Positions 24,903 to 64,000 are shown, counted from the first letter of the stretch. The stretch is 64,000 nt of DNA from Candidatus Thorarchaeota archaeon (GCA_046482545.1 JAWOEX010000028.1:160001-224000); one strand, 5' to 3'. Notes: generated from the sequence alone by a model not told the origin. Translations and numbers: made by a program.

Positions 24903-25004
24903 ATACCGGCATTGTGAGTCCGGAGTCGCTGAGTGTCTCTTTCCACTGAGGGTAGAATTGGTGTTTCAAGACAACAATCAAAAGAAAATTGGAGGAGGAG
25001 ATGT

Positions 25005-39518: not shown

Positions 39519-39674
39519 TTCTCGTACTCCGAGAGAGTAAAAGCTCCTTCATTTCTTTGATTCAGTAATTGCTCAGTTCTGTAAGGGCATCGGCACTCAA
39601 TTCGAATCTGACCAGTGTGTTTTTCTATACGAACGTACACTATAGACCCGCAATTAGACTGGAGTGGAGACATA

Positions 39675-48200: not shown

Positions 48201-51200
48201 TTCTCCAATACCACTCTGGATTATGACGAGCTTGATCAGTTCTCCGACCAATGGTTCATCTGCCCAGTCAGAAAGGTCGCCCACGATGCCAAGCGTAGTT
48301 CCTTGACTGATTGGCATGCCGGAATTCTGCAGACTGAGCTGAGATATTCCAAATACCTGTGAATCAAGAGTGTCTGAACATTCTAGGAGATAATCTTGCT
48401 TGTCGGTACTAATTTCAATGGCAACAGTCCCAGGTTCATTGAGGTGCACTTCAAGCGCTATACTGCCTGTTTGAGATGTCGAATCTGTTGCATTCATGAT
48501 TTGCATGCCATTCAGGAAAACCATGACTTCGATTTCGATACCCTCCAGGTTTTGGTTATACGAATCAGACAGATGGACAGCAAACTGGTTGTTTAAGGGG
48601 GCAAGTGGATCCTCTAGCCAGTGAATATCTACTGTAATTTCATCAAACACCTCAACCGCCATGCTGGAGTTCGTGGCTTCATAAACACCTTGTCTAGCTG
48701 ATGAGGTTTCGATGGTGGATACACCTCTGATGTTTGGAGTCCATGTAAAACTGGCACTACCCGCGTTCGTTGTTGCACACCAGTCAATAGTTGTTCCATT
48801 AGGAAGGAGAATAACTGCCGATACTTCTAGACCATCCACCGGCTCAGAAAGATGGTTTTCGGCGTAAATTATCAGGCTGTATTCCTTTCCACAGAGCAGA
48901 CCATCAGGGAGGTCCATTGAAAGGGTAACAGGAATTCTCGCGGTTAAGTCAGCATCGCTAGAAGCATCCCCCCGCGAAATGCTTCCATCGAAACTGGCAT
49001 TGATGAGATAGTCACCCGCCGTACCAGGCCTCCATGTCAAAGAAACCATCGCAGATGAATTCGTCAGCAAATCATCTTGGTATACTATACTAGAAGGCAA
49101 GTAGGTGATTTCGATTGATACCACTTCGTTAACAAGTGGACTCGAATTTGAATCCTCTAGAAGGACAACAATCTGCAAATCATCAGTTACCAACACTGAG
49201 GAATGCGTTGGAGATAAGAAGGTAATATTGCTTGACGAGAAGGAGATGAAGCTTGATTGGGTATTAGATCCTTTCACGAAATCGGCTCCTTCGAAGATCG
49301 CTTTTACAGAATAGTTTCCATTCTCGTAGAGGCCAATTACTAGTGAAACATGACCAGTCGAATTCGTTTCGAGATTCCATTCTGAAACCTCATTTGAGGG
49401 AGAGAGTACCTCTACTGAAACCCAGAAGCCGCTTAGCGAAATACCCTCTTCTGAGATGAGTTGCGCAGTTAGAGTCGCTTCACCATACTGGTCATATTCA
49501 TCCTGAATGTGCCAATCTAACGAGCTCTCTTCATAGACCAGCATCTTCCCTTGGGTTTCGGTTCCCTCTATGCTTCCATTGTTCCGAGTACACAGATTAT
49601 ATGTGTAATTCCCGCGCTCGGTGGTAATCCACTCGAATGAGTTTCCAGATAGAGCAGAAATCATACTATCAGTGTGAACAGTAACATCGTTTGAATCCAG
49701 AATCTCCAAGGTTACGTTTTGGCCCTCAACGGGGGTTCCGTTGCAACTGAATGTCAGAGAGTAGTCTATGGTTACTGGCTCATTTATCCGAGCATCTAGG
49801 ATATCGGAAGATTCTAGATCTGTGGATATTGGTTCAATAACGGAGACCTCTTCTGTTAGAACGAGCTGTTCACAATACTTTCTTTCAAGAGTTACTGCCA
49901 GAGTGTAGTTGCCTTCTGAATAGTCCAAAGTTGATACTTCAAAATCAAACGGCGATACTCGGTTTGCATAGAATGATTCCTCATTGAACGTTGTATTGTG
50001 CAAAGAGACAGTACCATTCGTGTCCCCGGCATCAGATCCTGTTGAAAGCTCCCAACTGACTGTCCCGGATAAGATATAGCCCTGGAGAATCTCAGAAGAG
50101 CCAATATCAAGGAATCCAGCAAGCTCTCCACTCACAGTAACGGTTTCCACGGAGTAAGCTCGTACAGCAGCATAGTCTGTCACAGCTACAGTCACATCTA
50201 GAGGGCCTAATGATGATTTGTCGTTGGGTACCACTATGTAGATTACGTCATTTGAAGACACATTTTCAAAGGTAGTCCAACCATCGAAAGCGTTCACTTT
50301 GACAATGTGCTGTGTGAGATTCGAAGTAATGCTCAGATTGATTGCAAGCGACTCTCCGAGTGATGCAGTTTCGGCAATCGAAGTCACTAGCCTTGTTCCA
50401 GTCACATTGACTAGTCGAAGTCTGAGCCCAAGAGTTGAGACCAGCTCAAGCATGTCAGCTGTAAAGACGGGTTGCCAGAGTTCGCTACTATTGAACCAGC
50501 CTTCATCGAAAGAATCCTCAAGTTTGTCAAAAACAGCTGTCGTGTTGACTGAATCAAGATTAACATCAAAGGAGCTTGATTTGAGCAGAGCTAGGGTTGC
50601 AACATCATTACTCAGTGACCAGAAATCATCATATTGCAAACGAGTTTGGATTTCCGCTTCTATCTCGTCCGCCATGGTCGAGGTTATCAACCCAAGACGC
50701 AGGGCAGCTCTGGTTGATAGTAAATCCACAGCAGATTGTTGATTGCAGTATGGTCTAATTGTCCAGTCTTGGCTTGACCAAGAACCACTGTCGTATTCGG
50801 ATAATACCGCTGATTCTAATGCAGATCTGTACTGGATGAAGTCCAGATGATCAAGCTGGTAAAGCGCTTCAACTGCAGCTACGGAGTGTTGCATACTCGC
50901 CGTGAAAGAAGCAGCATACGAAGTCGGTTTGAAATGACCGCCGATGTACTGTGATAGGGTGACATAGTTGGTTGCTTGAGAGGCGACTTCACTCGGGATT
51001 GCACGACCTGCCGTCATGAATGCTTCAATTCCAAGCAGGTTGGCCCAGACACTTCGTATTCTGTATTGATCATAACCGTATTCGATAGAAGATCCAGCAG
51101 TCAGATTATTCCATGTTGGATACATGGCGAAGGCATCAAAGGTCAACAGGTACTCGGATAGTTTCGAACGGTTTATCGCAGAAATGTGTGAATAGCGTGA

Positions 51201-53006
51201 TGCACGGGTGAGGTAGCTACTCCACATCATGGTCGGCAGTGCTTCCATCACCTCGAATCCAAGAGGTGTTTCTATCTCTTCCAAATAATCGCGAATACCA
51301 CTGCTAATCAGCTCATCCTGCAATCCAAGAGTGTTGACACACAAAGCTACCGGCCAAGTCTCTTCTGTCTTTGCCATGATATCTGAATCCGAAAATCCCA
51401 GCCCGAAACCACCTGAAGGTAGTTGCTGCTCTTCAAGCCATGAAATTCCATTGGTCCGATTCTCTGGACTGAGCATTCCCAACCTATCCATGGTCGTTAG
51501 ACTAAACGCAGTACCTGCTGTAATCTCTGCGTCATTGCCCAAGGAGTTGTTATAGCTACCATCGCCATTCGAAGTTCTTGTCTGAATCCACTGTACAAGC
51601 ATTGCAGGTTCTTGGTATTCCTGTCCAAGAATCTCAAGCGATAGCACACAGGCAGCAGCATAGGAGTTGCGAGGTGTTGTCGCATCAGGACTGACTGCAA
51701 TACCACCCCAGCAGTCGGGATCCGAGGTTTCAGACCCTTTGATCTGGCATTCTCTCAGCCATTCTTCCAATGCTGTAGTATCAATTTGGCTGAGTTCACC
51801 AGAGGAAAGAAGTCCTTGAAGAACATGGTAGGTTGTGATAACGTCGTTGTCAAATCCACCATCGGTTTGTTGCCGCGACGAGAGATATTCCACCAATCCA
51901 GAGACGTTGAATTCTGTTGCCAACTGGAGTTCGGCAACTAGCCATAGCCCATGAGCCGTTGCCAGTTCGCCATGTTCCGTATACCTTGAGTCAGCAAAGG
52001 CATATTCATCGCCTAGATCGGCGTAGGTTTCAGCAAGAATTGAATGTACGAGGGCTACGTTCTGAGCAACCCATTGATTCCACTGAGAAGTGTTGCAGAT
52101 GTCTTTCGCTGAACGAGCTGTCCAGTAGGTTGAACTAACGGTCGCCTCATGGGGATACCAGAAACCTCCACGAAGAAATCCCTCAGTTTCCTGCTGAGCA
52201 GCAATTGCGTCCGCTGTAGAGCTCTCACCCAGAGACGACGCAAAGCAAACGATATTCTCTAAGAGATCTTCTCCTTCAGCGGTAAGTTCATCGATAGTTT
52301 CTGATGCAAAGAGAAACGAATCAAGCGGGTACGAATCATATCTCAGAAAAGGAACTGCAGAACTTGAGGCTGTCAGGTTCACTATCCTTGACTTGCTAGT
52401 TTGGACGCTGTCAAGAGGTGTATCCACAGCAGTGTTGGCCAGTGTTACTCCTGCTTCAATCTCGTTAGGATAAGAAAGGAAGACTGCCTCTGCATAATCT
52501 ACCGCTAGATGAAGAACAGTGTCTGATGCGGCGGTCTTCTTGGGTGTATCTGTTCTGCGTAGATGGTGCAACAACCATGCCGCTCTGCCCATCATAATGA
52601 CTGGAACATCAGAAGCAAGAAGAACACGAAACAACTGATCGCTAGCTGTAGATCCATTGTTAGAGCCTGTACTGGCATCTAAGATGATGACGCTTGCATT
52701 CAGGACAGGAGATGGTTGACTCACAAGTTCGCTGCTTGTCTTCGTCTCCACAGGTATGCCTTGCGTGGACAAGAAAGATGCAATATTCTCACGCGCAGAT
52801 GGTATGCTAGCCTCATCCATTCCAACAACTAACACATTGGCAATACCGCTCCCGATTTTCAGTTCACTAGGCAAATAGCCTTGATGTTGTTCCACAGGAG
52901 ATTCATCAGATGTAGTCTGAGACACAAACCCTATGTCCTGTTGGATAGTAGCAAATGGCAACAAAAGACACAGGCAGCACAATACAAGTAGTCGTCGTGA
53001 ATTCAA
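45213..53006 (-). CDS. Giant (2597 aa) cell-surface protein: prenyltransferase/squalene-cyclase-type alpha/alpha toroid repeats, long Ig-like stalk, C-terminal TM
   Basis: Signal peptide; QQTDGGF, NGDGSY, QQLPSGGFG repeats; more than a dozen Ig-like units (L.D....P, TNSTG, GNY...A.F.G); TM followed by RRR. Confidence 0.88.
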   Translation of the reverse strand: MNSRRLLVLCCLCLLLPFATIQQDIGFVSQTTSDESPVEQHQGYLPSELKIGSGIANVLVVGMDEASIPSARENIASFLSTQGIPVETKTSSELVSQPSPVLNASVIILDASTGSNNGSTASDQLFRVLLASDVPVIMMGRAAWLLHHLRRTDTPKKTAASDTVLHLAVDYAEAVFLSYPNEIEAGVTLANTAVDTPLDSVQTSKSRIVNLTASSSAVPFLRYDSYPLDSFLFASETIDELTAEGEDLLENIVCFASSLGESSTADAIAAQQETEGFLRGGFWYPHEATVSSTYWTARSAKDICNTSQWNQWVAQNVALVHSILAETYADLGDEYAFADSRYTEHGELATAHGLWLVAELQLATEFNVSGLVEYLSSRQQTDGGFDNDVITTYHVLQGLLSSGELSQIDTTALEEWLRECQIKGSETSDPDCWGGIAVSPDATTPRNSYAAACVLSLEILGQEYQEPAMLVQWIQTRTSNGDGSYNNSLGNDAEITAGTAFSLTTMDRLGMLSPENRTNGISWLEEQQLPSGGFGLGFSDSDIMAKTEETWPVALCVNTLGLQDELISSGIRDYLEEIETPLGFEVMEALPTMMWSSYLTRASRYSHISAINRSKLSEYLLTFDAFAMYPTWNNLTAGSSIEYGYDQYRIRSVWANLLGIEAFMTAGRAIPSEVASQATNYVTLSQYIGGHFKPTSYAASFTASMQHSVAAVEALYQLDHLDFIQYRSALESAVLSEYDSGSWSSQDWTIRPYCNQQSAVDLLSTRAALRLGLITSTMADEIEAEIQTRLQYDDFWSLSNDVATLALLKSSSFDVNLDSVNTTAVFDKLEDSFDEGWFNSSELWQPVFTADMLELVSTLGLRLRLVNVTGTRLVTSIAETASLGESLAINLSITSNLTQHIVKVNAFDGWTTFENVSSNDVIYIVVPNDKSSLGPLDVTVAVTDYAAVRAYSVETVTVSGELAGFLDIGSSEILQGYILSGTVSWELSTGSDAGDTNGTVSLHNTTFNEESFYANRVSPFDFEVSTLDYSEGNYTLAVTLERKYCEQLVLTEEVSVIEPISTDLESSDILDARINEPVTIDYSLTFSCNGTPVEGQNVTLEILDSNDVTVHTDSMISALSGNSFEWITTERGNYTYNLCTRNNGSIEGTETQGKMLVYEESSLDWHIQDEYDQYGEATLTAQLISEEGISLSGFWVSVEVLSPSNEVSEWNLETNSTGHVSLVIGLYENGNYSVKAIFEGADFVKGSNTQSSFISFSSSNITFLSPTHSSVLVTDDLQIVVLLEDSNSSPLVNEVVSIEITYLPSSIVYQDDLLTNSSAMVSLTWRPGTAGDYLINASFDGSISRGDASSDADLTARIPVTLSMDLPDGLLCGKEYSLIIYAENHLSEPVDGLEVSAVILLPNGTTIDWCATTNAGSASFTWTPNIRGVSTIETSSARQGVYEATNSSMAVEVFDEITVDIHWLEDPLAPLNNQFAVHLSDSYNQNLEGIEIEVMVFLNGMQIMNATDSTSQTGSIALEVHLNEPGTVAIEISTDKQDYLLECSDTLDSQVFGISQLSLQNSGMPISQGTTLGIVGDLSDWADEPLVGELIKLVIIQSGIGEISSANLIAGEQGEFVYAYQFDEVGDFQIIATYTGSQLNASDTDNFVQRVQVVPTLVLEHDWTCLVSQDTQLSMLVLDALDDAIPNRSLTVTIEMNGEVVFEANLLSGTDYKHVHWTPGQRGLATLTLVHAGGNYYLENTTISTISVMAEIGGLLHLNTTSCDVYAAVEAMYNLTGQTETSGVSVVFEALDMNLIPLWTIQIDTNDSGIAIVSYLADDACGNIILRARPEDNQYLVGGESQKQLTVKTEAKVSLDVTNPVSDEQTNVSLSVYNELDTPIDAINLEIELVNPYGETVDLGGWLGQLSLTVSEGIAGFSFTSEEHGYHTLSISFAGSALVYGFENESMLMIYSRTSVSVDCSQDLEVGDTLDLSAKLTDKQGHALANMNLVIELNAPSISNEVTLTTNSTGYVEHSSILEEEGLWQVSVRFDGLGAYLQKESSVEVDVRYGTEIQVELLDQNDIIAGLAPLNLSLLLIDSGGIPLEGRDIAYNVYHEEEGLVFSDEIEQYSQRPENVSIAFTRAGNHTIIFQFLGTDHYHPSSTTIVVFVRGTTKITIDGPMTADRASNANLTIQILDERTDAISDLEGLYYELQGPNGLVDLKNRTILEDASIRLSLLALHCGSYQLNTMFEETSLRLGDSTVFEFDVTTVTRIVPTNQQLSGNLQEEHSMTIVLVDSLNGTINDGTIRVSLYNPDGEEIYGNSLSTSTTIDLAEGPPTIDWTPRIAGNYTLTFSYAGTEFRQACELSIVVLSRYATSLTFVDLTEAAYYDEEFKLSVRLTRENHKIGGAPIRIEILYGSQTVAKQTIATDWVGTAKAQFNLEYAGNYDVVVSYRGSELNNPCSVEGQVSLLPELSASLSGLSEPYVGAECKANITLVIAGARENSAFTVMGELYGPDGNLVKTVNGSASRMSSIEVTFSPTTIGEHVLNLTLGGLPAIENASISIPFSIESPPINIPMSESAIPLGGGLGIIGILAVAVRRRIKSVIESLPEEWEG

Positions 53007-53605
53007 AATGGTACCTCCAAAATCTGTATGTGAACGAAAAGCAGAATGATAATCGCAATGACCAGTTCAAGGGCACCACTCCGCGGCCTCTTCCTCAGTG
53101 ATGCCCCGATAAGTGAAATATCGCCACTCCTGATTGATGCGTTGAAAAGCACACCAAGGGCGACATACAGGCCGATGACAGGCCATATGAGGTCAGCCGC
53201 AAATGCCATAGGGAGTATCATCAGATTCATCGCGCTGAATACAGACAACACTACAATGGCATAGATCGCGGCGATGACAACTCCAACCCGTGGTGGGCGT
53301 TCAACATTCAGGTACAGGTTGACTTCGCCGTACGTTGTTGAAGTACCGACGCTCTCAATTCTGAAGCCGAAGACACTGCAGACCAAGTACCGAATCCCTA
53401 CATATACAAGAGAACCCGGGAGGAAAATGATAGAAAGAATAGATAGTACAGGATTCCTAGTCCATTCCTCAAACTCGCGTTTTCTCCCCGCAAGGAGTAT
53501 AGCACTTCGAATCACTGTCATTGCAATAAGCACGATTGGCGTGAAAGTCAGTGCTAGTATGAGATTTGTAACCACCAATCCGGCTAGATCATTCCAGTTA
53601 AGCAT
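53003..53605 (-). CDS. Membrane protein resembling zincin/M50-like (DUF3267-type) peptidases without HExxH
   Basis: IFLPGSLVYVGIRYLVCSVFG sits where homologs have PG..HE..H...C...G; FNASIRSGD echoes the PS.xD motif; stop overlaps the giant gene's TTG. Confidence 0.6.
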   Translation of the reverse strand: MLNWNDLAGLVVTNLILALTFTPIVLIAMTVIRSAILLAGRKREFEEWTRNPVLSILSIIFLPGSLVYVGIRYLVCSVFGFRIESVGTSTTYGEVNLYLNVERPPRVGVVIAAIYAIVVLSVFSAMNLMILPMAFAADLIWPVIGLYVALGVLFNASIRSGDISLIGASLRKRPRSGALELVIAIIILLFVHIQILEVPF

Positions 53606-53742: not shown

Positions 53743-54363
53743 TTAGCTAAAAATGTTTTTTTGTGTCTTTACAGGTTTATGTGGCCCCAGATTGGAATCG
53801 CTTTGCCGATTTTTCCCGGTTTTTGATACAAAATCAGTCAATTGCTCAGTCATTTTGCGCGAAGAATTCCAGATCATTCTGGTTCCATGGATTCGGTGTA
53901 CATTTTGCAACGAACGGAACGCCGCCTTGGTCCATCCACTAATGTCGAGCGAAGTGGGTTTTGCAATTCCTTGTATCAGTTTAGAAAATGACTGTGAATC
54001 TGTTTCTTCAACAAGTCTGCCCAAAAAGCTGACCAAAACCCGAAGACGATTGCTGTCGCAGTTGATTCCCATAGCAAGAAGAGCTTCTTTTGCAGAGCTA
54101 GTTCCTAAATGAGCAAGTGCACGCACTACCACAAACCAAGAGTCGAAATCCCTCCGACGAGCGAGTGAATTGCAGATTTCAATCACGGCTGAGTCTCGCC
54201 TGTGGGCTAGCTCCTGAATGGCCGGTTCCCGCAAGAATAGACTCAGTTCTGTGTTCTTACTTCTATTTACCAGCTTTTCTCTAGAGACATCAGAAAAATC
54301 ATAGACTTGTTCAGAACTCAAAGCGGAACCAGTATCAACCAAGAACAGGTAGTTGGCGTTCAT
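53743..54363 (-). CDS. HEAT/PBS-lyase repeat-like protein
   Basis: REPAIQELA...VRALAHLGTSSAKEALL...LVSFLGRL; own TTAATAA box about 25 nt upstream. Confidence 0.6.
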   Translation of the reverse strand: MNANYLFLVDTGSALSSEQVYDFSDVSREKLVNRSKNTELSLFLREPAIQELAHRRDSAVIEICNSLARRRDFDSWFVVVRALAHLGTSSAKEALLAMGINCDSNRLRVLVSFLGRLVEETDSQSFSKLIQGIAKPTSLDISGWTKAAFRSLQNVHRIHGTRMIWNSSRKMTEQLTDFVSKTGKNRQSDSNLGPHKPVKTQKNIFS

Positions 54364-54421: not shown

Positions 54422-55393
54422 TCAGCATGTCTCTTCGAGTGTCGTCTGTTCTTGACCGTAGGTTTTCCAAGCCCGAGTGAGAGCCTTAATAGTCCTCTTA
54501 ACCGTTTCTCTCTTTTCAAGTGGAAGAAAATGCCGTTTCAGTTGATTCGGATTCGGGGGTCTCAGTGTGAGGTCAAACATGAATGAATCTATTCTGTCTG
54601 CTTCATAGAAAGTATCTCTCGCCAAGATAAATTCTTTAATCTGTGAGTGAGGAATACCGTTGGCGCGGAGTACATCTTCCAAGCTTCCGTATCGCTTCAA
54701 TTGTGTGGCACCCCTTCGAGGGCCTACATTTCGAAGTCCTTCATGAAAATCACAACCACACAGGATAGCCAAATCTCTCAAGCCCACCAAGTCCAAATCA
54801 AGCTCTTGTTTCAAATCGGATAATCTGGCAGAGGTAATCTTTCCTTTGGAAAAGCTGATGCCCTTGGTAAGATGTGGGGATCCAAAAAGAAGTGTGTCTA
54901 CATCATTGGATAACACAGACCCGGTTCGTCTAGCCCTTGCCAGTGCAGCTGCGGTCATCTCCGCTTCAGAGGATGCAGTAATGGTCGGAACTCCAGATGC
55001 CGCCAACAAATCCTTCAGATGAAAAGACATGAAATACATCGACAAGCTAGGACTTCCGGCAAGAGAAGACGAAATATGATGGTCGAAAGGATCTCTCTTC
55101 TCTAGAAAACGATTGTATAACCGGCGTGCGGAACGCAGAAGGTTGGGATTAGGTGCCCGCTTTAGGGATTCTGGAGGGCCATCAAAGATGAATACTGGTA
55201 GGATGTTATGTTGGAGTAAACCCTCAACCAGCTTGAGGGCAATAGACACGTATGGCATAGGCTTTCTTCCTGTCCCGCCCCGGGCGGCCAAGCGACGCAC
55301 AAAGTAATTTGGAACATCGATTGCTAGGGCTGAGGGCTCAATTTTAATGGCACTTGCAGTGTAGTGAACGAAATCCCAGCCAACTACTCCCAA
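54422..55393 (-). CDS. FEN1/XPG-family 5' structure-specific nuclease (divergent paralog)
   Basis: TTG start gives MGV; AID..NY, PVFIFDGPP..LK, SEAE, SNDVDTLLFG, H3TH ILCGCDF..GL..VGP; PIP-like QTTLE at the C-terminus. Confidence 0.88.
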   Translation of the reverse strand: MGVVGWDFVHYTASAIKIEPSALAIDVPNYFVRRLAARGGTGRKPMPYVSIALKLVEGLLQHNILPVFIFDGPPESLKRAPNPNLLRSARRLYNRFLEKRDPFDHHISSSLAGSPSLSMYFMSFHLKDLLAASGVPTITASSEAEMTAAALARARRTGSVLSNDVDTLLFGSPHLTKGISFSKGKITSARLSDLKQELDLDLVGLRDLAILCGCDFHEGLRNVGPRRGATQLKRYGSLEDVLRANGIPHSQIKEFILARDTFYEADRIDSFMFDLTLRPPNPNQLKRHFLPLEKRETVKRTIKALTRAWKTYGQEQTTLEETC

Positions 55394-56100
55394 GAATGAA
55401 ATCCCCCGTATATTGATTCTAATCCACACGGGCTCAAATAAACAACTACCGCTCGTTCGTTTTTGATAAGTGGTGAGAATTGCACCAAGATACGTATTGC
55501 AGAATCAGACACATCTAATTTCTCTATCCGAATCACGGAGTCTACTGCGTGAGCAAGTACATTACCTCCAACAGGTTTCCTTGCACCTTTTGATGAATAC
55601 GCTGTCATCATGAGATGCAGCCCGTGATTGTTGACCTGAGCACGGAGTTTTTCCAAAGAGCTGTAAAGCTTCCGCTGAGTCTTCTTGGTCATGGGCTTTC
55701 CGCTCAGATTCATCACTCCTGTAAGGCTATCAACAATCACAACACGGAAACCATGGGTTCCAGCATGTTCAACCGCTGCTTCCAAATCAGTAAGGGAAAA
55801 AACATTGCCAATTTGAATGTGTTCAAGGGGCCTGTCTGCTTCCATAGTCTCTCCAAACTTCCGCATGAGATTAGGTGAAAATCCAGATCCAGAATCCAAG
55901 TAAAGGGAACGATTATTTGCAACAACCCCTCCAAGAGCAGCGATGTGAGCCATCTCTGTGAGAAGCCCTCGTTCAGGGCCATGAAAAATGCTAATCTGGC
56001 GGTCAACAAACACTGGTCCCACTGTTGAGTCTAGTTGCTCAGGCTTGAGTTCGACCAGCCTATGAAAATCCATGTTAAACTCACTCAGCTGTTTGGCCAT
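55384..56100 (-). CDS. RecA/RadA-family paralog with degenerate Walker A
   Basis: ISIFHGPERGLLT (no GKT), LYLDSGSGFSP, VVIVDSLT, KPVGGNVLAHAVD (Rad51/RadA L2-side motif). Confidence 0.8.
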   Translation of the reverse strand: MAKQLSEFNMDFHRLVELKPEQLDSTVGPVFVDRQISIFHGPERGLLTEMAHIAALGGVVANNRSLYLDSGSGFSPNLMRKFGETMEADRPLEHIQIGNVFSLTDLEAAVEHAGTHGFRVVIVDSLTGVMNLSGKPMTKKTQRKLYSSLEKLRAQVNNHGLHLMMTAYSSKGARKPVGGNVLAHAVDSVIRIEKLDVSDSAIRILVQFSPLIKNERAVVVYLSPCGLESIYGGFHSWE

Positions 56101-57034
56101 CCGCGGTCACGCTCCGAATTATGACTGATACATCCTTTTCAAAAAGTAAAGTCTCTTCTGTGCCTGGTGGCAGGGATTCAAGGTCCATTCCCGGAACCTC
56201 GTTTTCCCGTACTATGACCCTTGGCCCATCCGAAGACGGTAAGATGGTCGTTCTTACCGGCGGGTCTGCCAGGATGCGTGAAAGAGTCGTGTGGTTTGTA
56301 GCGATACGAAAATCCTTTGGATCGATACCCGCAAGGCTTTCAAGGTAAGGCAGAGAGCCAATGAAGTGGCTGACTTCGGGGGATAGCTCAGTGAAATGGT
56401 CAACACCATAACTCCTAACGAGATTTTTGATTCGATTCGGCCAGCCTGCATCGTTTTCGCAGTTCACAATAATTGCGTCTGCCTCCTCGAATCGGACCAA
56501 ACAAACCGGCAATAGTGGTCGTTCCTCGATTAGAGTAATCATCGTCTGGAAATACCTGTGAGAAAGAAGAAACACCTGCCATACGCTACCGGACCTTACA
56601 GAATGATTATCCTCAATTCTTACCATAGTGTTGAGGACAGTACTGAATCCCCTTGACAATACTTTGGCACTTCTCTTTTGACGATGGGGATTTCGCACAG
56701 TGGTACATCCAATCAGGAAGAAGATAACTCCGAGTATAGAAACTAATCCATCAAAAATAAGCAAAGTAAAGCCGATTGCTAAAGCTGAATAGCCAGCCGC
56801 AAATCCGGCTACTGCAGTCACAACAGAACTCACTTTAGATTCAGATACGAAACGATGGTCAAGAACAAGTAATCCAAAGGCAAGGAGTACAAGGAAAAGG
56901 AGAGGAATGACATTCCCAGTTCTTGCGCTGAGTACTATAACGGTGAGAGATGCCAGCAATTTAGTGCCGAATAAAACAGCAACCATTATCACAATCAGCA
57001 GAATTCCTGCATTGCCTATCCACTTACCAATCAT
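56081..57034 (-). CDS. Membrane protein: about 4 N-terminal TM plus soluble domain, function unknown
   Basis: Hydrophobic first ~110 aa; overlaps both neighbours. Confidence 0.75.
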   Translation of the reverse strand: MIGKWIGNAGILLIVIMVAVLFGTKLLASLTVIVLSARTGNVIPLLFLVLLAFGLLVLDHRFVSESKVSSVVTAVAGFAAGYSALAIGFTLLIFDGLVSILGVIFFLIGCTTVRNPHRQKRSAKVLSRGFSTVLNTMVRIEDNHSVRSGSVWQVFLLSHRYFQTMITLIEERPLLPVCLVRFEEADAIIVNCENDAGWPNRIKNLVRSYGVDHFTELSPEVSHFIGSLPYLESLAGIDPKDFRIATNHTTLSRILADPPVRTTILPSSDGPRVIVRENEVPGMDLESLPPGTEETLLFEKDVSVIIRSVTADGQTAE

Positions 57035-57660
57035 TGTGTTCCTCCCCCAAGGGCCAATGCAACTGATCCTTCATCTTCAAGCCGAATTTCAATCAAAGGA
57101 GTAGATTCTACTTCAGCAATTGATATGCCGGATTTTATGGTTCGAGCAATCTTGATTTCGTAATCAGCGAATCTATTCATTGCTTCCTCATACACAGCCC
57201 TTTTCGAACCACCGACTTCTCTACACTCGCTGATACAGAGAATCGTCAAATCGTGTTTCATTGACATAGCTGTTAGACTCGGTAACACCTCTTCGAAGAG
57301 TACTCTTCCCCACATAGGGTCTTTTCGAAGTCCCATATCCAAGACACGAGTAATCGAATCAATGACAATAAGGGTTGTATCTTCAGTGAGAAATGTGGGG
57401 ATATCTTCGATAATCTCTACCGTCATTTTATGGCCCATAGCACTAAGGACCCTAACTGATTCAGGCCTTCCGTTTGTCCGGGATATGGTCTGCTTCAAAG
57501 GCTCGATGAAAGCCATCTTACCATTTGTGTTAATCCACAATACATCAGAGTCCATAGCCACCTCCGAAGCATAAGCTATGGCAAAGAGAGTCTTTCCCGT
57601 TGCAGGAGCTCCGGAAACATGGACTAGTCCCTTTAGTCCAAAGTCGCAAGGCTTGTTCAT
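57031..57660 (-). CDS. RadB-like RecA/Rad51 paralog (intact P-loop)
   Basis: G.....V.GAPATGKT, VLWINT, LIVIDSI, ILCISE; core-only length of 209 aa. Confidence 0.82.
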   Translation of the reverse strand: MNKPCDFGLKGLVHVSGAPATGKTLFAIAYASEVAMDSDVLWINTNGKMAFIEPLKQTISRTNGRPESVRVLSAMGHKMTVEIIEDIPTFLTEDTTLIVIDSITRVLDMGLRKDPMWGRVLFEEVLPSLTAMSMKHDLTILCISECREVGGSKRAVYEEAMNRFADYEIKIARTIKSGISIAEVESTPLIEIRLEDEGSVALALGGGTQ

Positions 57661-59201
57661 AAGGAGTCTTCCTCATCCTCTGATGGTTTGCTTTCTAGTG
57701 GAGACCCCTTTAGTTTTGAATCAGCAATCTGGCGTCCTGTAAGCTCCAATTCATCTTTGCTGGAGTCAGTATTTCCCTCTACTTCATCCCCGCTTTCGGA
57801 AATACCGGCTGAGCCTATTCGTTGGTATAATCCATCATTACACTTGTCCGGTTCAGGTATTTCGTCGGGTATTTCAGATTCTATTTCTTGCTTCAGAAAT
57901 GCTGCAGTGCCAAGCAGGTTTATGGAATCATATATCCTCTGCAAGAGATTATTGTCGATGAGGCCGGCTCGTGAGACGGCTCTGTATAGAGTTCCAATAT
58001 AATCAATCAGGGAGTCTCGATCTTCTGAAGGGTATGCACCAAGACCGGCATAAGAAATTGCTAATTCATCGAAATCACTCTCTGAAAGCCCGGCCTCAAG
58101 TTCCTCGAATAGGCCTAGGAAGGTGGCTAGACCATCATCAGGTATCGATGCGCGCTTGGTTGACGAGTTTTTCGCGCACTTCTCAATTATGATACTACTG
58201 GCCTCAGCGGCCTCCTCAATTTTCGCATTTTCTATTGCATCAACTACTCTGGATACGAGTGGAGATATTACGAAATTGATGTCCTCGATTTTCTTGAAGA
58301 TATCTGCCTTCTTGCACAGTTGCTGTTGTGTGAGGGCGCGATCTCCAATTTCAGCCAGCTTGCCTTCTTCTTCAGCCAGCTTATCCTTGAAACAGAAAAT
58401 ATTCTTTCTTGCCTTAAGACCAGTCCACATTGCAAAACCAACAGAAAAGGCAGCCAGTACCACGGAAATAATCCATCCGATTCCTCCAACAAGAGAGCTG
58501 TACACCGCGCTTACTACGCCTACAAGACCAACTAGGATCGCCAAGAAAGCAAACCACCCATTTGTAATTCCCTTTTCCAGAGACTCCCATTTCTCCGGTA
58601 TCATCGCAGCCCTAATATCAGGTGCTGTTCCCATCGCATCTGATCTTCGAGACAGACTGAAGTCTTGAAGATTCAACACCCTTTTTGGTTCACAGAACCA
58701 AGAGTAGGAGTTCTTGTCTACTGTCTCCGAAGTAACGACATAGTTCATTCTCGACTGTCTAACCAAGCTATGCTTCTCGGGTGATGAAGAAGACTGCAGC
58801 ACATCGAATTCGATTTTTCCGAAAGGAGTCATGATGCACTTCGATTCTAGTTTTTCGTCGAGTTCAAGGTCCTCAAATACTTCATTCAGTTCTCTGTCCG
58901 CTGCTTTTAGAACGGTTTTCTGCATACCCATCTTTGGAAGGTCACAGGAATTGAGATCCAAGATATTTGTCAAAGAAACATGTACACTTCTTGTATTGGG
59001 TATCCTATCAAAGCGTACTCCAACAACAAGTCCTTTTTCAGGATAGGCCTTTGCCACATGCTCGTTTTCTCTCAGAAGATCGAGTATGCTTTCTATCTGC
59101 GATTCTTTCTTGTCTTCCTCTTTCTCAGTTATAGTATCCCCTTTTCGAGATGGCTGTGTTGATCTTTGATCACTACTTGCTGACATCTTTATCACCTGCA
59201 T
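57657..59201 (-). CDS. Membrane protein with central 2-TM hairpin and helical C-terminal domain, function unknown
   Basis: Two adjacent TM helices mid-protein; probable start ATG 59186 after GGTGA; overlaps both neighbours. Confidence 0.78.
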   Translation of the reverse strand: MQVIKMSASSDQRSTQPSRKGDTITEKEEDKKESQIESILDLLRENEHVAKAYPEKGLVVGVRFDRIPNTRSVHVSLTNILDLNSCDLPKMGMQKTVLKAADRELNEVFEDLELDEKLESKCIMTPFGKIEFDVLQSSSSPEKHSLVRQSRMNYVVTSETVDKNSYSWFCEPKRVLNLQDFSLSRRSDAMGTAPDIRAAMIPEKWESLEKGITNGWFAFLAILVGLVGVVSAVYSSLVGGIGWIISVVLAAFSVGFAMWTGLKARKNIFCFKDKLAEEEGKLAEIGDRALTQQQLCKKADIFKKIEDINFVISPLVSRVVDAIENAKIEEAAEASSIIIEKCAKNSSTKRASIPDDGLATFLGLFEELEAGLSESDFDELAISYAGLGAYPSEDRDSLIDYIGTLYRAVSRAGLIDNNLLQRIYDSINLLGTAAFLKQEIESEIPDEIPEPDKCNDGLYQRIGSAGISESGDEVEGNTDSSKDELELTGRQIADSKLKGSPLESKPSEDEEDSL

Positions 59202-61356
59202 TGTATCGATTTGAATGCAACTCGTTGAGCAATCTATGAACTCCCCTTCCTACTTTATCCAAGTTGGAAACCTCTGCAATGCTGGAGATTGAGATAAGAA
59301 TCCACTCCAGCATATCAAGGATTAATCTGATGTCACCTGTACCCAGATTATTTCTAGTGGCTATAGTCTCACAGTTCTCAGAAGCCAGAATGAGTTCAGC
59401 AACAATCTGTGCCGTTGACTCACCAAGGTTTCTGCCACTTTCCAGCATGATGATATGCGCGATTAAATCAAGCAATTCCCTTGAAGTATCTACCATTGGA
59501 AGGAGGGCCAAGATTTCTCTGACTGTTGATATATGGAGATAGAGCTTGCAAACAACGCTGCCGAGAGCTGTGAGTCTCAGCCGGGCATCAGAGCCACCTT
59601 CAATCAAACCGAGCTTGGTCAGAGTTGCTACTGGGCTTGTTTCTCCTAATGCTAGGGGAATTATGAAATCGGCTTTGGACCGCAATGATTTCGCTGCTTC
59701 GATTCCCAGAGCAACAAGATGGGGGCAGAGGATGCCATCTTGCCCAATGGCTTTGCCGCACGAACACGACGGGCCTTCAAGAACACCGCTCTTCCGTGAT
59801 CTGATGGAGAACCGACATGTGTACCCTCCTCCGCTCCGTGGTTTAACCAGACCCCCTATCGTCTCCTCCGATTTCTCGCGGATATCAACGTGAGCAAGGA
59901 CCCCTTCCATTGCGGCGTGGAGGGTTTCAGACAGCGCATGTTGTTCAATCGACGCCTGTGCGGTGAGATCGGCTAGAATCAGCGGTCTAACTGGTGAACG
60001 TGGATTCCTTACGTGATTATGTACGAGATATGATTGGGCAAAATATACGTCTTCAAGGTCTAAAACCGTAGAGCCATCAAGAAAATCGATTGCCACTAGA
60101 ACCTGCTCTGTAAGATTGCTTGAAAGACTGCTTCGCACAGAACTGAATCTAGGCATCATTTCGTCCTCGCCTTCAGAAGCATCAATACACTGGAAGTACG
60201 CGTCTAAAGCTGTTTTTCGCTCTCCCTCACTTCGAGTAATGATGATTCCAAAGCCTTCCTTGTCGAACCCTGGCCTTCCTGCTCTTCCCAACATCTGGTG
60301 AACTTCATTAGCTGAAAGAATCTGTTTGTAATCAGCAGGAGAGACGATGGATGAAAGAACCACTGTACGTGCAGGAAGGTTCATTCCCGAAGCAAGAGTT
60401 GTCGTAGCTGAAATCGCTTTCAGGAATCCTTTCTTGAAGAGCCGTTCAACAAGACTCCGAGATTGAAAGTCTAACCCGGCATGATGATATGCTACACCTT
60501 GATGGACGAGAGGAACTAATTCACTTGGTAGGGACGCATTCCAGTTCTCAACCGAATCGAGCTCGGTGTCAAGATTATCTTTCTCCACATGACGCAGCTG
60601 TCTGACCACGTGTGGTGCCAGTCTCTTAGCTGATGCCACTGCTTCTCGCCTTGTTCTGCTGAATACCACAACCTGGCCGTTCCTTTGTACGCTTCGCATA
60701 ACAATATCCCGAACCGTCTTCTCTGGCTCATTGGTCTTCAGAACTCTCGTTACCAACGGAACTGGTCGATGACTAGATTGTAGAAGTTTGGAATCCAACC
60801 ATTCTGCCAGTATTTTTGGCTGACCAATTGTAGCACTGAGAACGACGAACTGAACTTCAGGGAATGCTTTTCGTAACCGCATCAGAGTTCCTTCAAGCCT
60901 GCCTCCTCGCATTGGGTCTGAAATGTTCTGGATTTCATCCACGATTACAGTGCCTATATCTGAAAGCCAGTCAGCCCTGTGGCGTAGTAGCGAATCAGTC
61001 CTCTCATAGGTTGAGACGAGTACATCGCAAGTTGCGAACTTGCTTCCGCTGGCTTCAAGATCCGAAGTACTTACTTCCACATTCAAACCACGATGAGAAT
61101 ATCGTTCCCTGATGGTTGATCCAATTTGAATAGCCAGCGATTTCAGTGGAACCATGAAGACAGCCTTTCGTCCATTTGAGACCGCCCTCAGAGCGGCCAT
61201 CTCACCAATGAGGGTCTTCCCAGAACCCGTGGGACTACATATCATCATGTTAGCCCCGTCGAGCAATCCCTCATCTATGGCCTTTTGTTGCAGTTTCCTA
61301 GGTTCTAATCCTGCCTCGCGAATCCAATCCAAAACCGATTGCTGGACTAAGGTCAT
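59173..61356 (-). CDS. Ski2-like/Hel308-type SF2 helicase with inserted SWIM zinc finger
   Basis: Q motif LQQKAI, PTGSGKT, DEIQ, LSAT, HHAGL, TTTLASGMNLPA, QMLGRAGRPGFD; CSC...CPH inside the winged-helix region. Confidence 0.9.
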   Translation of the reverse strand: MTLVQQSVLDWIREAGLEPRKLQQKAIDEGLLDGANMMICSPTGSGKTLIGEMAALRAVSNGRKAVFMVPLKSLAIQIGSTIRERYSHRGLNVEVSTSDLEASGSKFATCDVLVSTYERTDSLLRHRADWLSDIGTVIVDEIQNISDPMRGGRLEGTLMRLRKAFPEVQFVVLSATIGQPKILAEWLDSKLLQSSHRPVPLVTRVLKTNEPEKTVRDIVMRSVQRNGQVVVFSRTRREAVASAKRLAPHVVRQLRHVEKDNLDTELDSVENWNASLPSELVPLVHQGVAYHHAGLDFQSRSLVERLFKKGFLKAISATTTLASGMNLPARTVVLSSIVSPADYKQILSANEVHQMLGRAGRPGFDKEGFGIIITRSEGERKTALDAYFQCIDASEGEDEMMPRFSSVRSSLSSNLTEQVLVAIDFLDGSTVLDLEDVYFAQSYLVHNHVRNPRSPVRPLILADLTAQASIEQHALSETLHAAMEGVLAHVDIREKSEETIGGLVKPRSGGGYTCRFSIRSRKSGVLEGPSCSCGKAIGQDGILCPHLVALGIEAAKSLRSKADFIIPLALGETSPVATLTKLGLIEGGSDARLRLTALGSVVCKLYLHISTVREILALLPMVDTSRELLDLIAHIIMLESGRNLGESTAQIVAELILASENCETIATRNNLGTGDIRLILDMLEWILISISSIAEVSNLDKVGRGVHRLLNELHSNRYNAGDKDVSK

Positions 61357-63674
61357 TGCGCTGCTGCCGCCTCCTCAAACTGCCTGAGCGCCATTCGGCC
61401 TTTCAGCGTCAAGCGATAGTTTCCGTAATCTACCCCACTGTGGGTTTCATGCCCCTTCAGTATGAGGCTCGCTCTCTCCAATCGGAAAAGAATTTGTGTC
61501 ATGTCAGCTGTTGATAGGCCCTCTCGGGTAAGGAAACTCTGAAGTGCTTTTTCAGTCAGCGGAGAATACCTATTAAGAAGCTCAAGAATTCGTAGTGCTA
61601 TTTCCTTATTGTCTCTACAAGCATGGGCCAAAAGGCTGCTTGCTTTCGGTTCTGGTTTCTCGTAACTCTGCAGAGTCTTTAGTCTACTACGAATGTCGTT
61701 CTCCGTAAGATCCTGTAAAACAGGAGCATCACACAATCTTATCGGATAAGATAGCTCTTCTGCTCTATGCGAAAGGATAGCCATATCCGACCCAAGTGTT
61801 CGGATAAAGGAGGTTTCTCTACTGGATCTGCGGGATTTACTGTGAATGCCGTGTCCAACAACGGTTAGCTTGAGTATATCATTGGCAACAGCAATGTCAC
61901 GCGAATCTCTGAGACGTAAACAGATTGAGCTTCCAAGCTGGTTCAGTACTTCATTGTCCAGACTTGAGGGGTTCTCTACTGAAATGATTAGACTACCACG
62001 TCTAAGAAGATCTCCTACGATGTCACGTGCCCATTCCGAGTTATCAGGATAGCGATTCCCACTCGCTAAAAGGTTAGCAGGTGTGTCTAGTATAACGACG
62101 AATTCTCTGCTGGGTCCAAGCGCGCTGAGTTTGATTAATGACAAATCCCAAGCGAAGATATCAAGCTCAGGGCTCCCCAGTTCGATATGAGCTACTGTCA
62201 GTGTATTCTTCGCAAGCGAATTCATTGGTACAGTCTGTTGGCCATAGAAGGCTCGTGCCCCAACACCATCGCGCAGAAGGCGTATAACTTCTATACCGCG
62301 CAAGGAATCTCTTGAGGGATCGGTGGAATACTTCTGTGAAGAAGCCCCTTCTTCCGCTACAACTGGAGTATCATCTGTCAGAGAAACGTCAGCCAGAGTA
62401 GCATTGGGCACGGACACTGCTCGCTGTAATGCTAGCTCAAAGTCAGTAGCAGCACCAAACGGACGACCGTTCAGAATTTCGAGTGCTTTTTTCAGCTTTG
62501 AGACATATCGCAAGGAGTTCATACCATCGGCAGCAACAGGGTTTAGAATCAAATCATCTGCAAGCTGAAGAGGAATGGCCGAGTCATGAAGGCTGGCTAG
62601 TCTCATGGCATTTTCATTTGCACTAAGGACTATCACATGCTTACCTGATTCCAGAATTGAATGGATTAGATTCGCGAGAATTGGAATTCTTTCATTTCTA
62701 TGCCCTCCACAGATGAGAAGGCCATCCTCGAGGTCCTCTTGGGCTAAACCCACTGATGGACCCTCCAACATTGTTTCAGGATTGATGCTTCGTCCAACTT
62801 CGAAGTCGTACTGCTGACCGCGTATCGGGCTGACAAATTCTCCAGGAATCGTTGCGCCCACTTCTGATGCTAGTTCACTCTTCAGCTGTATTAGCCACTT
62901 GGTCAATTCACTACCTAGAGCGTAGAAACAAGGGTCCCGATTAGCGAAAGAACGATTCAAAATTAAAGCTGTGAGTTGTTGAACTGATAGTCGTTCCCAT
63001 CCTTTGCTTGGTAGCGCCCCCCGAATGCCACTTTCAAAAGCACCTTGCCCTTTTTGATTTCGCAAGTGGGCAGCAATAGAGACAGAAACTTTCCAGAAAC
63101 CAGCTTGATTGAGTAGGAAAGATTCCAATCCTTCCTCGCTTATTGAATCAACTAACCATCGGGAGGTGTCATCTAGCAAATCTTGGCTGTAAAGGATAGA
63201 GGAATCACTTTTCTTAAGAGAAATTATGAGACAAAAACCTAAGCCTATGGGAAGAGCCCGTATTAGTCGTCCAAGATCCCCCAAGAACTCAGCTGGCGCA
63301 TCTTCTAGGGATAACGCCATCATGTACTGGCCGTTTTTGGTTTCTATCAGTTCTCTGTCGGAGCCACTGATAGAACCGATTCCATTATCCTGCTGCCATT
63401 CTGGTACGAGTTGTTCAGAAGACCGGGAAGTCAGAGAGGGCGCTCCTATCAACAATAGTAGGACTGCAACGCTGAGGATACCAACTACTTTAGGAATGTA
63501 AAAAACAGCCCAAAAGGCAAGGGCTGAAACGAGCAGAGAGGAAAGCCAAGACGAGGCTAACTCCCGAGTCCTCCACCGAGGCTTTGTACTCTTCGATACT
63601 GACCAACGAGATTCCTTCATTTCGTCCATAGGGTCTCGCTGGGGAATTGACCCGAAGATATGACGGTCAGTCAG
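61353..63674 (-). CDS. Membrane-anchored HerA/VirB4/CedB-like pseudo-ATPase with C-terminal winged helix
   Basis: N-terminal 2 TM; GLLICGGHRNER (Walker A position), LNPV, VVILDTPANL (Walker B position), LIISVENPSSLDNEVLNQLGSSICLRL..D; wHTH ending YRLTLKG. ORF-track start is ATG 63629; in-frame CTG 63674 with GGAGG is proposed. Confidence 0.7.
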   Translation of the reverse strand: MTDRHIFGSIPQRDPMDEMKESRWSVSKSTKPRWRTRELASSWLSSLLVSALAFWAVFYIPKVVGILSVAVLLLLIGAPSLTSRSSEQLVPEWQQDNGIGSISGSDRELIETKNGQYMMALSLEDAPAEFLGDLGRLIRALPIGLGFCLIISLKKSDSSILYSQDLLDDTSRWLVDSISEEGLESFLLNQAGFWKVSVSIAAHLRNQKGQGAFESGIRGALPSKGWERLSVQQLTALILNRSFANRDPCFYALGSELTKWLIQLKSELASEVGATIPGEFVSPIRGQQYDFEVGRSINPETMLEGPSVGLAQEDLEDGLLICGGHRNERIPILANLIHSILESGKHVIVLSANENAMRLASLHDSAIPLQLADDLILNPVAADGMNSLRYVSKLKKALEILNGRPFGAATDFELALQRAVSVPNATLADVSLTDDTPVVAEEGASSQKYSTDPSRDSLRGIEVIRLLRDGVGARAFYGQQTVPMNSLAKNTLTVAHIELGSPELDIFAWDLSLIKLSALGPSREFVVILDTPANLLASGNRYPDNSEWARDIVGDLLRRGSLIISVENPSSLDNEVLNQLGSSICLRLRDSRDIAVANDILKLTVVGHGIHSKSRRSSRETSFIRTLGSDMAILSHRAEELSYPIRLCDAPVLQDLTENDIRSRLKTLQSYEKPEPKASSLLAHACRDNKEIALRILELLNRYSPLTEKALQSFLTREGLSTADMTQILFRLERASLILKGHETHSGVDYGNYRLTLKGRMALRQFEEAAAAQ

Positions 63675-63939
63675 GGGTCTCGCCTCCCGATTTCAATTCT
63701 TGCAGGGCTGTAAGCATCTGTTTGACTAGACTCGAAGATTCGTATGCAACGGCCAACTTTCTCCCGAGTACCAGTAATTCTGGAAGTCCCTCCTTCCGCG
63801 AAACACCCACCTCAGTCCGCCTTGGTGATTCAACCAAAAGGGTGAATTCGTAAGCATGACCACCACGTAGTGCTTTCTTGACCTCATCTACGGCAAGACC
63901 AAGCGGAATGGTGATGGAATCCATGTACTCGATCTTCAT
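63667..63939 (-). CDS. Small hypothetical protein (90 aa), operon member
   Basis: GGGGG RBS-like; ATGA overlap with the upstream ORF. Confidence 0.65.
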   Translation of the reverse strand: MKIEYMDSITIPLGLAVDEVKKALRGGHAYEFTLLVESPRRTEVGVSRKEGLPELLVLGRKLAVAYESSSLVKQMLTALQELKSGGETPD

Positions 63940-64000
63940 TGAATCAGACCCCCTGATAGAAGAGATTTGGTTAGACTGACGGGTGCTTCATGAACACGCA
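63936..64000 (-). CDS. 3' end of an upstream gene (partial)
   Basis: Open frame RVHEAPVSLTKSLLSGGLIQ* whose TGA overlaps ATG 63939. Confidence 0.45.
   Translation of the reverse strand, partial: RVHEAPVSLTKSLLSGGLIQ

Follow-up and report, generated by a model that had tools for sequence, protein, structure and literature searches.

A conserved Asgard gene cluster combining a membrane-bound, P-loop-less VirB4/HerA-fold protein with divergent recombination enzymes: a tentative candidate for DNA exchange

The DNA analysed here is a 64-kb stretch, referred to throughout as the window (C9:160001-224000), of a metagenome-assembled genome of a Candidatus Thorarchaeota archaeon (GCA_046482545.1), and our subject is a run of genes at its end that encodes membrane proteins together with DNA-processing enzymes. 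An initial annotation, made from the sequence alone, had proposed that at least eight of these genes form a membrane-coupled DNA transfer and recombination operon. Between window positions 54422 and 64000 every long open reading frame (ORF) is on the minus strand and adjoins or overlaps its neighbours, and the eight predicted minus-strand ORFs are all present where they had been placed. The minus strand reads ATGA at 63936-63939, 61353-61356, 57657-57660 and 57031-57034, exactly the positions at which four stop/start overlaps had been named. The remaining junctions of the window genes overlap by 20-46 nt if the first start codon is taken, and on that assumption the short overlaps suggested at 59173, 56081 and 55384 are also found. 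The last of these probably does not hold, as orthologs of the final gene (g15; Table 1) begin MGV and a start at the TTG at 55393, giving MGV and leaving an 8-nt gap to g14, is more probable.

Of the co-directional operon to which these genes belong, g1-g15 (C9:229803-214422), the window holds just the 3' two-thirds, and the operon runs on for 5.8 kb upstream (L002:936-6803, minus strand). This upstream sequence adds seven co-directional, coupled genes, g1-g7, the 3' end of g7 lying within the window, and the junctions of the operon genes are nearly all ATGA or short overlaps. An operon of eight genes was too small an estimate; with seven genes upstream and g16-g18 downstream it is about twice the size first reported. 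The two genes g17 and g18 are ATGA-coupled to each other, and the whole system comprises approximately 17 genes, namely the 15 of the core, the linked g17 and the giant surface protein g18. Pfam and NCBIfam name four of the eight window proteins (727, 209, 238 and 335 aa), in agreement with the earlier family calls of one Hel308-like, two RadB/Rad51-like and one FEN1/XPG-like protein, and leave those of 90, 758, 514 and 317 aa unmatched. The Pfam/NCBIfam scores of the recognised members all fall far under the curated equivalog cut-offs, which indicates that these members are paralogs. In public databases members of the operon are annotated as 'hypothetical protein', 'predicted transcriptional regulator' or 'DEAD/DEAH box helicase'.

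Table 1 Genes of the system, in order of transcription; positions are those of the window
Gene	Position	Strand	Product
g1	upstream of window	-	268 aa; no family match
g2	upstream of window	-	149 aa; no family match
g3	upstream of window	-	344 aa; full-length RadA paralog, HhH + Rad51 domain
g4	upstream of window	-	145 aa; Zn-ribbon + winged helix-turn-helix (wHTH)
g5	upstream of window	-	204 aa; no family match
g6	upstream of window	-	660 aa; XPD/Rad3 paralog
g7	63936..64000 (3' end)	-	203 aa; N-terminal hairpin of two transmembrane (TM) helices; no known family
g8	63667..63939	-	90 aa; no known family; ATGA overlap with g7
g9	61353..63629	-	758 aa; 2 TM + N-domain + VirB4/HerA fold + C-terminal winged helix
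g10	59173..61356	-	727 aa; Hel308-family SF2 helicase with SWIM insert
g11	57657..59201	-	514 aa; ~190-aa N-domain, 2-TM hairpin 211-262, helical C-domain, acidic tail; no family
g12	57031..57660	-	209 aa; RadB-like RecA-fold ATPase
g13	56081..57034	-	317 aa; four N-terminal TM helices + ~190-aa cytoplasmic domain; no family
g14	55384..56100	-	238 aa; RadA/RadB-like RecA fold without P-loop
g15	54422..55429	-	335 aa as called; FEN1/XPG-family nuclease paralog; likelier TTG start 55393
g16	53743..54363	-	206 aa; weak HEAT-like match
g17	53003..53605	-	200-aa polytopic (4-TM) membrane protein
g18	45213..53006	-	2597-aa type-I surface protein

The fold of g9 was addressed with an AlphaFold2 model built from 12 orthologs (pLDDT 73.7), in which the fold domain spans approximately residues 266-640. 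Foldseek matched the model to HerA and VirB4 at E values of 4e-13 to 1e-11 (HerA 4d2i, E 4e-13), and VIA-align superimposed residues 266-639 on the VirB4 C-terminal domain 4ag5 with a Z of 28.3 (rmsd 3.0, 328 aligned residues) and gave a Z of 24.3 against HerA 4d2i, with DndH-C and TrwB also matched. The motor domains of FtsK aligned less well (Z 15-16), and the structural matches include the defence proteins SIR2-HerA, DUF4297-HerA and DndH. The VirB4/HerA fold proposed for the 758-aa protein is thus borne out, with its nucleotide-binding motifs dead: the Walker A position has ICGGxxxER, which lacks both the lysine and a GK[ST], in all 12 Thorarchaeota orthologs and nine other Asgard orthologs, and at the Walker B position just the Asp is kept (VVILDTP). 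By these motifs g9 is predicted to be an ATP-dead, non-catalytic VirB4/HerA-fold protein, and its kin form a conserved family of P-loop-less proteins of this fold. The loss of the P-loop is ancient and common to Asgard lineages and does not reflect recent decay. The N-terminus of g9 is less clear. An in-frame CTG at 63674, where the gene had been suggested to start, lies 45 nt before the ATG and would give an 8-nt overlap with g8. Positions 63630-63674 encode GSxPxxDP, conserved in g9 orthologs, and contain no in-frame ATG, GTG or TTG, which makes an earlier non-canonical start plausible, though not proven; either the CTG is used or the protein may be shortened in the window's genus.

The helicase g10 resembles Hel308 in its N-terminal half. 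It matches PRK02362 at E 7e-102 only over its first 390 residues, scores 324-342 bits against a cut-off of 887 (NF002654) and 278 against 1200 (NF040935) over model positions ~1-410, and has archaeal Hel308/Hjm as its best PDB matches (216-222 bits, residues 6-440). The motifs GSGKT, DEIQ, SAT and QMLGRAGRPG do not vary among orthologs. The C-terminal half of g10 has been remodelled around a SWIM zinc finger whose signature CxC..CxH (C531xC533...C544xH546) is invariant in 11 g10 orthologs, and HhH domain 5 is undetectable in the protein. A genome-wide model search found no canonical Hel308 in this genome, the next candidates being Ski2-like proteins of 884-889 aa on C32 and C10, and g10 is therefore its sole Hel308-like enzyme. 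Genomes of Freya, Baldr and other Asgards have both a canonical Hel308 (835-905 bits) and a g10-type gene (297-369 bits); this coexistence identifies the SWIM form as a distinct paralog family, and Thorarchaeota appear to have kept the SWIM form only. A Loki-like genome (G228) displays the same pattern of a SWIM paralog without a canonical Hel308. Two further observations concern Hel308-type helicases outside the operon. In the complete genome of Ca. Freyarchaeum deiterrae the canonical Hel308 match (G117:C1:1801582-1803801, 905 bits) reads through two TAG codons and one TAA, and the gene may be broken, or the stops may stem from an insertion or from the assembly. At two places in the Thorarchaeota genome, G000, a HerA-like (DUF87) gene lies 8-9 kb from a ~890-aa SF2 helicase with Hel308-like motifs (C10:46052-46801 with C10:55790-57211; C26:199457-199855 with C26:207521-208528), and in these, too, a helicase may be paired with a HerA-like protein for defence or repair.

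The operon also encodes three proteins of RecA fold. The RadA paralog g3 has HHH_5 and Rad51 Pfam domains with GPARGGKT and LVVVDS conserved, and scores 221 bits against a cut-off of 259 (NF003301) and 207 against 361 (TIGR02236); the canonical RadA of this genome, at 310 bits, is encoded on C14. In a RadA tree built by a quick method, with unresolved deep nodes and several long branches, the g3 clade stands apart from canonical RadA on branches ~5-fold longer, g12 falls in the RadB clade and g14 sits on a very long branch. Both Walker A (GxxGSGKT) and Walker B are intact in g12. In g14 the P-loop is replaced by HGxERxPLT, without a lysine, in all orthologs, and it is probably a non-catalytic paralog. 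An all-against-all hhalign comparison of the operon families linked only g3, g12 and g14. We rejected g2 as a decayed RadA, though a RadA-like gene stands in for g2 in some genera. This genome has at least seven RecA/RadA-family genes. One 242-aa Rad51-like protein (L002:8280-9008, minus strand) is encoded, together with a Yip1-domain membrane protein (L002:7317-7934, minus strand), 0.5-2.2 kb upstream of g1 and groups with a Freya paralog on long branches of the quick tree.

Both remaining enzymes likewise have counterparts elsewhere. The XPD paralog g6 keeps the XPD Walker A/B motifs and four Cys, and a canonical XPD (319 bits) is found on C28. For g15 the XPG_I match has an E of 2e-16 and the FEN1 equivalog score is 104 bits against a cut-off of 352; its acidic ligands (D38, D82, E154, E156, D175, D177 and D227) are conserved. 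Of 11 g15 orthologs, 9 have a PIP-like QxxLxxW[VFL] in the C-terminal region, the window protein reading QTTLEETC and its genus QTTLEE[TI]C. Two canonical FEN1 genes score above cut-off, on C23 and C21. The RadA, XPD and FEN1 of the operon are extra, divergent paralogs, and the expectation that housekeeping copies exist off the operon holds for RadA, XPD and FEN1 and fails for Hel308, for which g10 is the best match. Outside the operon, at C28:190346-193683, the canonical XPD gene adjoins a gene for a 238-aa RadB-like protein, a further instance of XPD-RadB pairing.

Membrane proteins do lie among the DNA-processing genes, as had been claimed, with hydrophobic TM hairpins in g7, g9, g11 and g13. 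A conserved ERPLLPV is carried by g13. Searches of g1, g2, g5, g7, g8, g11, g13, g16 and g17 against Pfam at E up to 10 returned nothing beyond a weak HEAT match, and PDB profile searches of g1, g5, g11 and g13 returned nothing meaningful. An AlphaFold2 model of g5 (pLDDT 74.7) had its best Z, 6.2, to T3SS-chaperone/YbjN-like folds with Atlas TM scores below 0.45, too weak a match to call g5 a protein of that fold; Atlas look-ups gave no usable match for g5, and for g11 only scores below 0.8 with a TM score of ~0.2. A g5 profile run against 1.84 billion representatives retrieved 18 proteins, so few that the family is lineage-restricted. The giant protein g18 has an N-terminal signal/TM segment, an alpha-alpha-toroid, MG2/MG4 and Ig-like domains, a C-terminal TM anchor and a short cytoplasmic tail.

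In order to assess conservation we collected related loci by searching with g9, of which 12 were fetched and compared along with 40 further public Thorarchaeota loci. Full-length g9 orthologs were found in 53 of the 85 genomes of the family, with 34-41% identity between genera, and one ortholog in the sister family at 28% identity. The order g1-g15 is colinear in the 12 and the 40 loci, across many genera and with no exception wherever the contig reaches, and this colinearity is far beyond chance. The chromosomal neighbours of the operon are alike across genera. The conservation of gene order anticipated for relatives is therefore found. The operon is a genuine, conserved system of many genes, not a set of housekeeping genes that adjoin by chance; it is a single vertically inherited, translationally coupled unit of Thorarchaeota. 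Orthologs of g8 occur at the same position in most readable loci (E 1e-4 to 5e-9) and went undetected in three (L061/L105 and L098), g16 follows g15 in many but not all Thorarchaeota loci, and in some genera g2 is replaced by a second RadA-like gene. Absence of the operon from a third of the family was considered and rejected as mainly an assembly effect. In one genome (G332) g11-g15 and g17 are present and matches to g9 and g10 are missing because the contig stops inside g11. In each of five genera compared, the genes g17-g18 follow the operon on its downstream side. The order on one strand in the sister family (G311) is g3-g6, two small genes, g9, g10, a g11-sized gene, g17, a g18 of 2599 aa and then g12-, g13-, g14- and g15-like genes. 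This location inside the operon, together with the constant downstream position in the five genera, shows that g17 and g18 belong to the system.

A search with the C-terminal half of g10 retrieved helicases of 710-880 aa from many Asgard families besides Thorarchaeota, and these share contigs with weak g9-like matches 0.3-11 kb away. We fetched nine such loci from outside Thorarchaeota, representing Ca. Freyarchaeum deiterrae, Baldrarchaeia, an Odin-like lineage and other Promethearchaeota. A Hel308-SWIM protein with intact motifs is encoded in all nine, as is a g9-like protein, either split (TM part and C part) or fused and never with a Walker A lysine. RadA-, RadB- or weakly RadA-like genes occur in seven of the nine and a FEN1-like gene and a Zn/wHTH protein in several, and in Freya two unmatched proteins copy the layouts of g11 (central hairpin) and g13 (four N-terminal TM helices). 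Homologs of g18 adjoin the module in the Baldr and Odin-like loci despite a rearranged gene order, and the Freya and Odin-like loci encode M28-peptidase/nicastrin-like membrane-anchored proteins of 888-1016 aa. The core module is thus Asgard-wide and not restricted to Thorarchaeota, in which this old module is at its most consolidated and its richest, with the addition of XPD and of a second RecA-fold paralog. The Freya RadA beside the g9-like gene was rejected as the canonical one, being a third paralog at 244 bits as against 338 and 332. The M28-like proteins (L123:11309-13975, 888 aa, Freya; L128:7912-10962, 1016 aa, Odin-like) lie inside the module where Thorarchaeota have the alpha-toroid/Ig giant protein.

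What this system does can be proposed with less confidence. We tentatively favour, as somewhat short of an even chance, a role in which DNA is imported, or exchanged between cells, and then recombined into the chromosome. Damage induction, which had also been suggested, is likewise an inference. The hairpin-TM proteins g7, g9, g11 and g13 with g17 would form a membrane platform centred on the ring-type VirB4/HerA-fold g9, non-hydrolysing and with a winged helix of DNA-binding type, and g18 would connect this platform with the outside of the cell. On the inner face, two helicases of opposite polarity, Hel308-SWIM (3'-5') and the XPD paralog (5'-3'), would unwind or translocate the arriving DNA, the RadB-like g12 and the P-loop-less g14 would help to load it onto the RadA paralog g3, and the FEN1 paralog g15 would trim the joints. 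The helicases, rather than the dead VirB4-like g9, would supply the motor, in an arrangement analogous to Ced/Ted with homologous recombination. In a bolder form of this proposal, which we think unlikely, VirB4-like subunits, ATP-dead and arranged in a ring, would act with the giant, adhesin-like protein of the surface to deliver partner-cell or environmental DNA to a private recombination line of Hel308-SWIM, RadA, RadB-type mediators and FEN1. The system would then be a chromosomal mating-and-recombination machine, compositionally unrelated to bacterial competence or conjugation, whose pairing of Hel308-SWIM with Rad51 paralogs prefigures the eukaryotic HELQ-BCDX2 and Shu/SWS1 modules.

Several observations weigh against import or exchange, the main weakness being that no transport motor, channel or pilin was recognised. 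No active translocation ATPase was identified among the proteins of the system, and g9 lacks the catalytic Walker A lysine. No VirB6/CedA-like channel or VirB2/CedA1-like pilin was recognised by Pfam (g7, g11, g13 and g17) or by PDB profiles (g11 and g13 only), and the upstream sequence, in which a search for an active VirB4/CedB, a CedA/VirB6-like channel and pilins had been advised, yielded none recognisable by Pfam or profile. The TM segments of the operon proteins are even-numbered hairpins with very short outer loops, which fit anchoring as well as a pore. The enzymes are all of ordinary fork-repair or recombination types, the putative PCNA-type tail of the FEN1 paralog points to replication-linked repair, and one complete chromosome (G320) lacks g1-g3, so that the RadA paralog is dispensable there.

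Known DNA-import systems offer the closest comparison. Ced (CedA, A1, A2, B, D and E) of Sulfolobales and Ted of Thermoproteales import DNA. CedD, required for DNA import in Sulfolobales, has a layout of TM, N-terminal domain and HerA/VirB4-like domain (PMC11868833), and g9 is similarly a membrane-anchored VirB4/HerA-clade protein with TM, N-domain and ATPase-fold parts. Also shared are several small hairpin-TM partners, a link to homologous recombination and chromosomal, vertical inheritance (PMC11868833, PMC9905601), Ted loci being co-localised with recombination genes (PMC9905601). Unlike the proteins of Ced and Ted, g9 lacks the Walker A lysine and ends in a winged helix; neither a channel like CedA/VirB6 nor a pilin like CedA1/VirB2 was recognised here, recombination enzymes (RadA, two RadB-like proteins, XPD, Hel308-SWIM and FEN1) lie within the operon itself, and in place of pili there is a giant Ig/MG/alpha-toroid surface protein. 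The archaeal herA-mre11-rad50-nurA operon of end resection also joins a HerA-superfamily protein with recombination enzymes. Its HerA is soluble and acts with the NurA nuclease as an active hexameric translocase, whereas the HerA-fold protein here is membrane-bound and, by its motifs, ATP-dead, and there is no NurA, Mre11 or Rad50 in this operon; other HerA-like (DUF87) genes are found elsewhere in this genome. We found no description in the literature of this operon or of the pairing of Hel308-SWIM with a pseudo-VirB4 protein, so that the combination seems, as first suggested, to be undescribed.

The alternative that survives best, which we judge rather unlikely, is a membrane-tethered repair and recombination hub without transport, a second toolkit for membrane-attached chromosomes, stalled forks or crosslinks, or with a role at the division site like that of FtsK in organising dimer resolution. 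Every recognisable enzyme is of a repair or recombination type, most orthologs of the FEN1 paralog have the PIP-like tail, an ATP-dead g9 suggests a scaffold rather than a pump, and the searches described above recognised no channel or pilin. Also consistent with such a hub is the cooperation of Hel308/HELQ with RAD51 paralogs at forks (PMC13623763). The SWIM zinc finger is a module tied to Rad51-paralog binding in Shu2/SWS1 of eukaryotes, and the operon resembles Hel308/HELQ with BCDX2 in coding for a Hel308-family helicase alongside RecA-fold paralogs, of which one is catalytic and the other lacks the P-loop. In contrast to HELQ-BCDX2 and Shu, the SWIM is inserted in the helicase itself, g10 lacks HhH domain 5 and falls far under the Hel308 cut-offs, and the set is membrane-tethered. 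In the case of FtsK/SpoIIIE, g9 shares an N-terminal TM region, a domain of the FtsK-HerA superfamily (ASCE fold), to which FtsK motors align at Z 15-16, and a C-terminal winged helix, with a location at the membrane coupled to recombination. FtsK is an active dsDNA pump that works with XerCD, whereas g9 has no P-loop lysine and no Xer-type partner and its best structural matches are VirB4 and HerA (Z 28/24). Such a hub leaves unexplained the four or five separate membrane proteins and, as its main weakness, the 2600-aa extracellular protein and other large surface proteins kept in or beside the module across differing gene orders.

Envelope-coupled defence, in which a surface or membrane sensor would recruit helicases and a nuclease to destroy viral or plasmid DNA where it enters, in the manner of Zorya or of HerA-scaffolded systems, appears quite improbable. 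Shared with SIR2-HerA/Nezha, DUF4297-HerA, Hachiman and Zorya are a HerA-fold scaffold and a Hel308-like helicase matching HamB, and with Zorya in particular a membrane complex coupled to DNA-acting enzymes. PADLOC was run on ten proteins, g8-g17, with g1-g7 outside the scan; g10 matched HamB-type and PDC-M23B helicase models (E 5e-41 to 5e-39) and g9 and g11 gave marginal matches. The defence proteins among the structural matches of g9, the fast protein evolution reflected in its 34-41% identity between genera and the presence of a giant surface protein also fit this idea. In the same scan no system was matched, 7 of the 10 proteins had no match and there was no HamA, SIR2, DUF4297 or other effector, and membership of a known defence system was rejected for g8-g17. 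The strict order and position, vertical inheritance and phylum-wide core are unlike typical defence islands, and a full-length RadA paralog with HhH, RadB-like mediators and a FEN1 with a PCNA-type tail are recombination parts and not killing parts.

A remnant or domesticated mobile-element module, whether a conjugative or a viral replication-recombination cassette fixed in Thorarchaeota, is very improbable: the dead motifs of the VirB4-fold protein could point to a conjugation ATPase that has decayed, and Ced and Ted are themselves domesticated derivatives of type IV secretion systems (PMC9905601), but no integrase, transposase, tRNA or att-like context is present within 20 kb upstream and 30 kb downstream, GC is uniform at 0.45-0.48 with no compositional break, neighbours are the same across genera, and the genes are all intact with conserved motifs and a P-loop loss that is ancient and Asgard-shared. 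No Rfam family was found in the upstream 20 kb. The decaying mobile element once raised as a possible explanation was accordingly rejected, and a recent mobile element is already largely refuted.

If DNA import or exchange followed by recombination is the true function, the system is an unrecognised cellular machine of ~17 proteins, at least eight of them without detectable relatives outside Asgard archaea, long conserved in the lineage from which eukaryotes arose. It would provide a concrete, testable candidate for Asgard DNA exchange and recombination, a process relevant to how sex arose and how eukaryotes came by their recombination toolkit (HELQ, RAD51 paralogs, SWIM-domain mediators and XPG/FEN1-family nucleases). 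Should transport prove wrong, three results still stand, namely a second toolkit for recombination tethered to the membrane, a Hel308-SWIM paralog family that is defined and specific to Asgard archaea, and a conserved P-loop-less VirB4/HerA-fold family. These two families change how 'Hel308 present or absent' should be scored in Asgard genomes. Published tallies may mix canonical and SWIM paralogs, and Thorarchaeota and some Loki-like genomes have the SWIM paralog only.

Elsewhere in the window, on the plus strand, positions 24933-32176 encode two tandem ~1200-aa right-handed beta-helix/NosD-repeat proteins with a PKD-like domain, followed by an 814-aa protein without a family, and resemble a block of large surface proteins. 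A 1140-aa protein encoded at 39615-43037 (plus strand) has an unusual architecture, with an N-terminal TrmB-type HTH followed by long apolipoprotein-like helical repeats.

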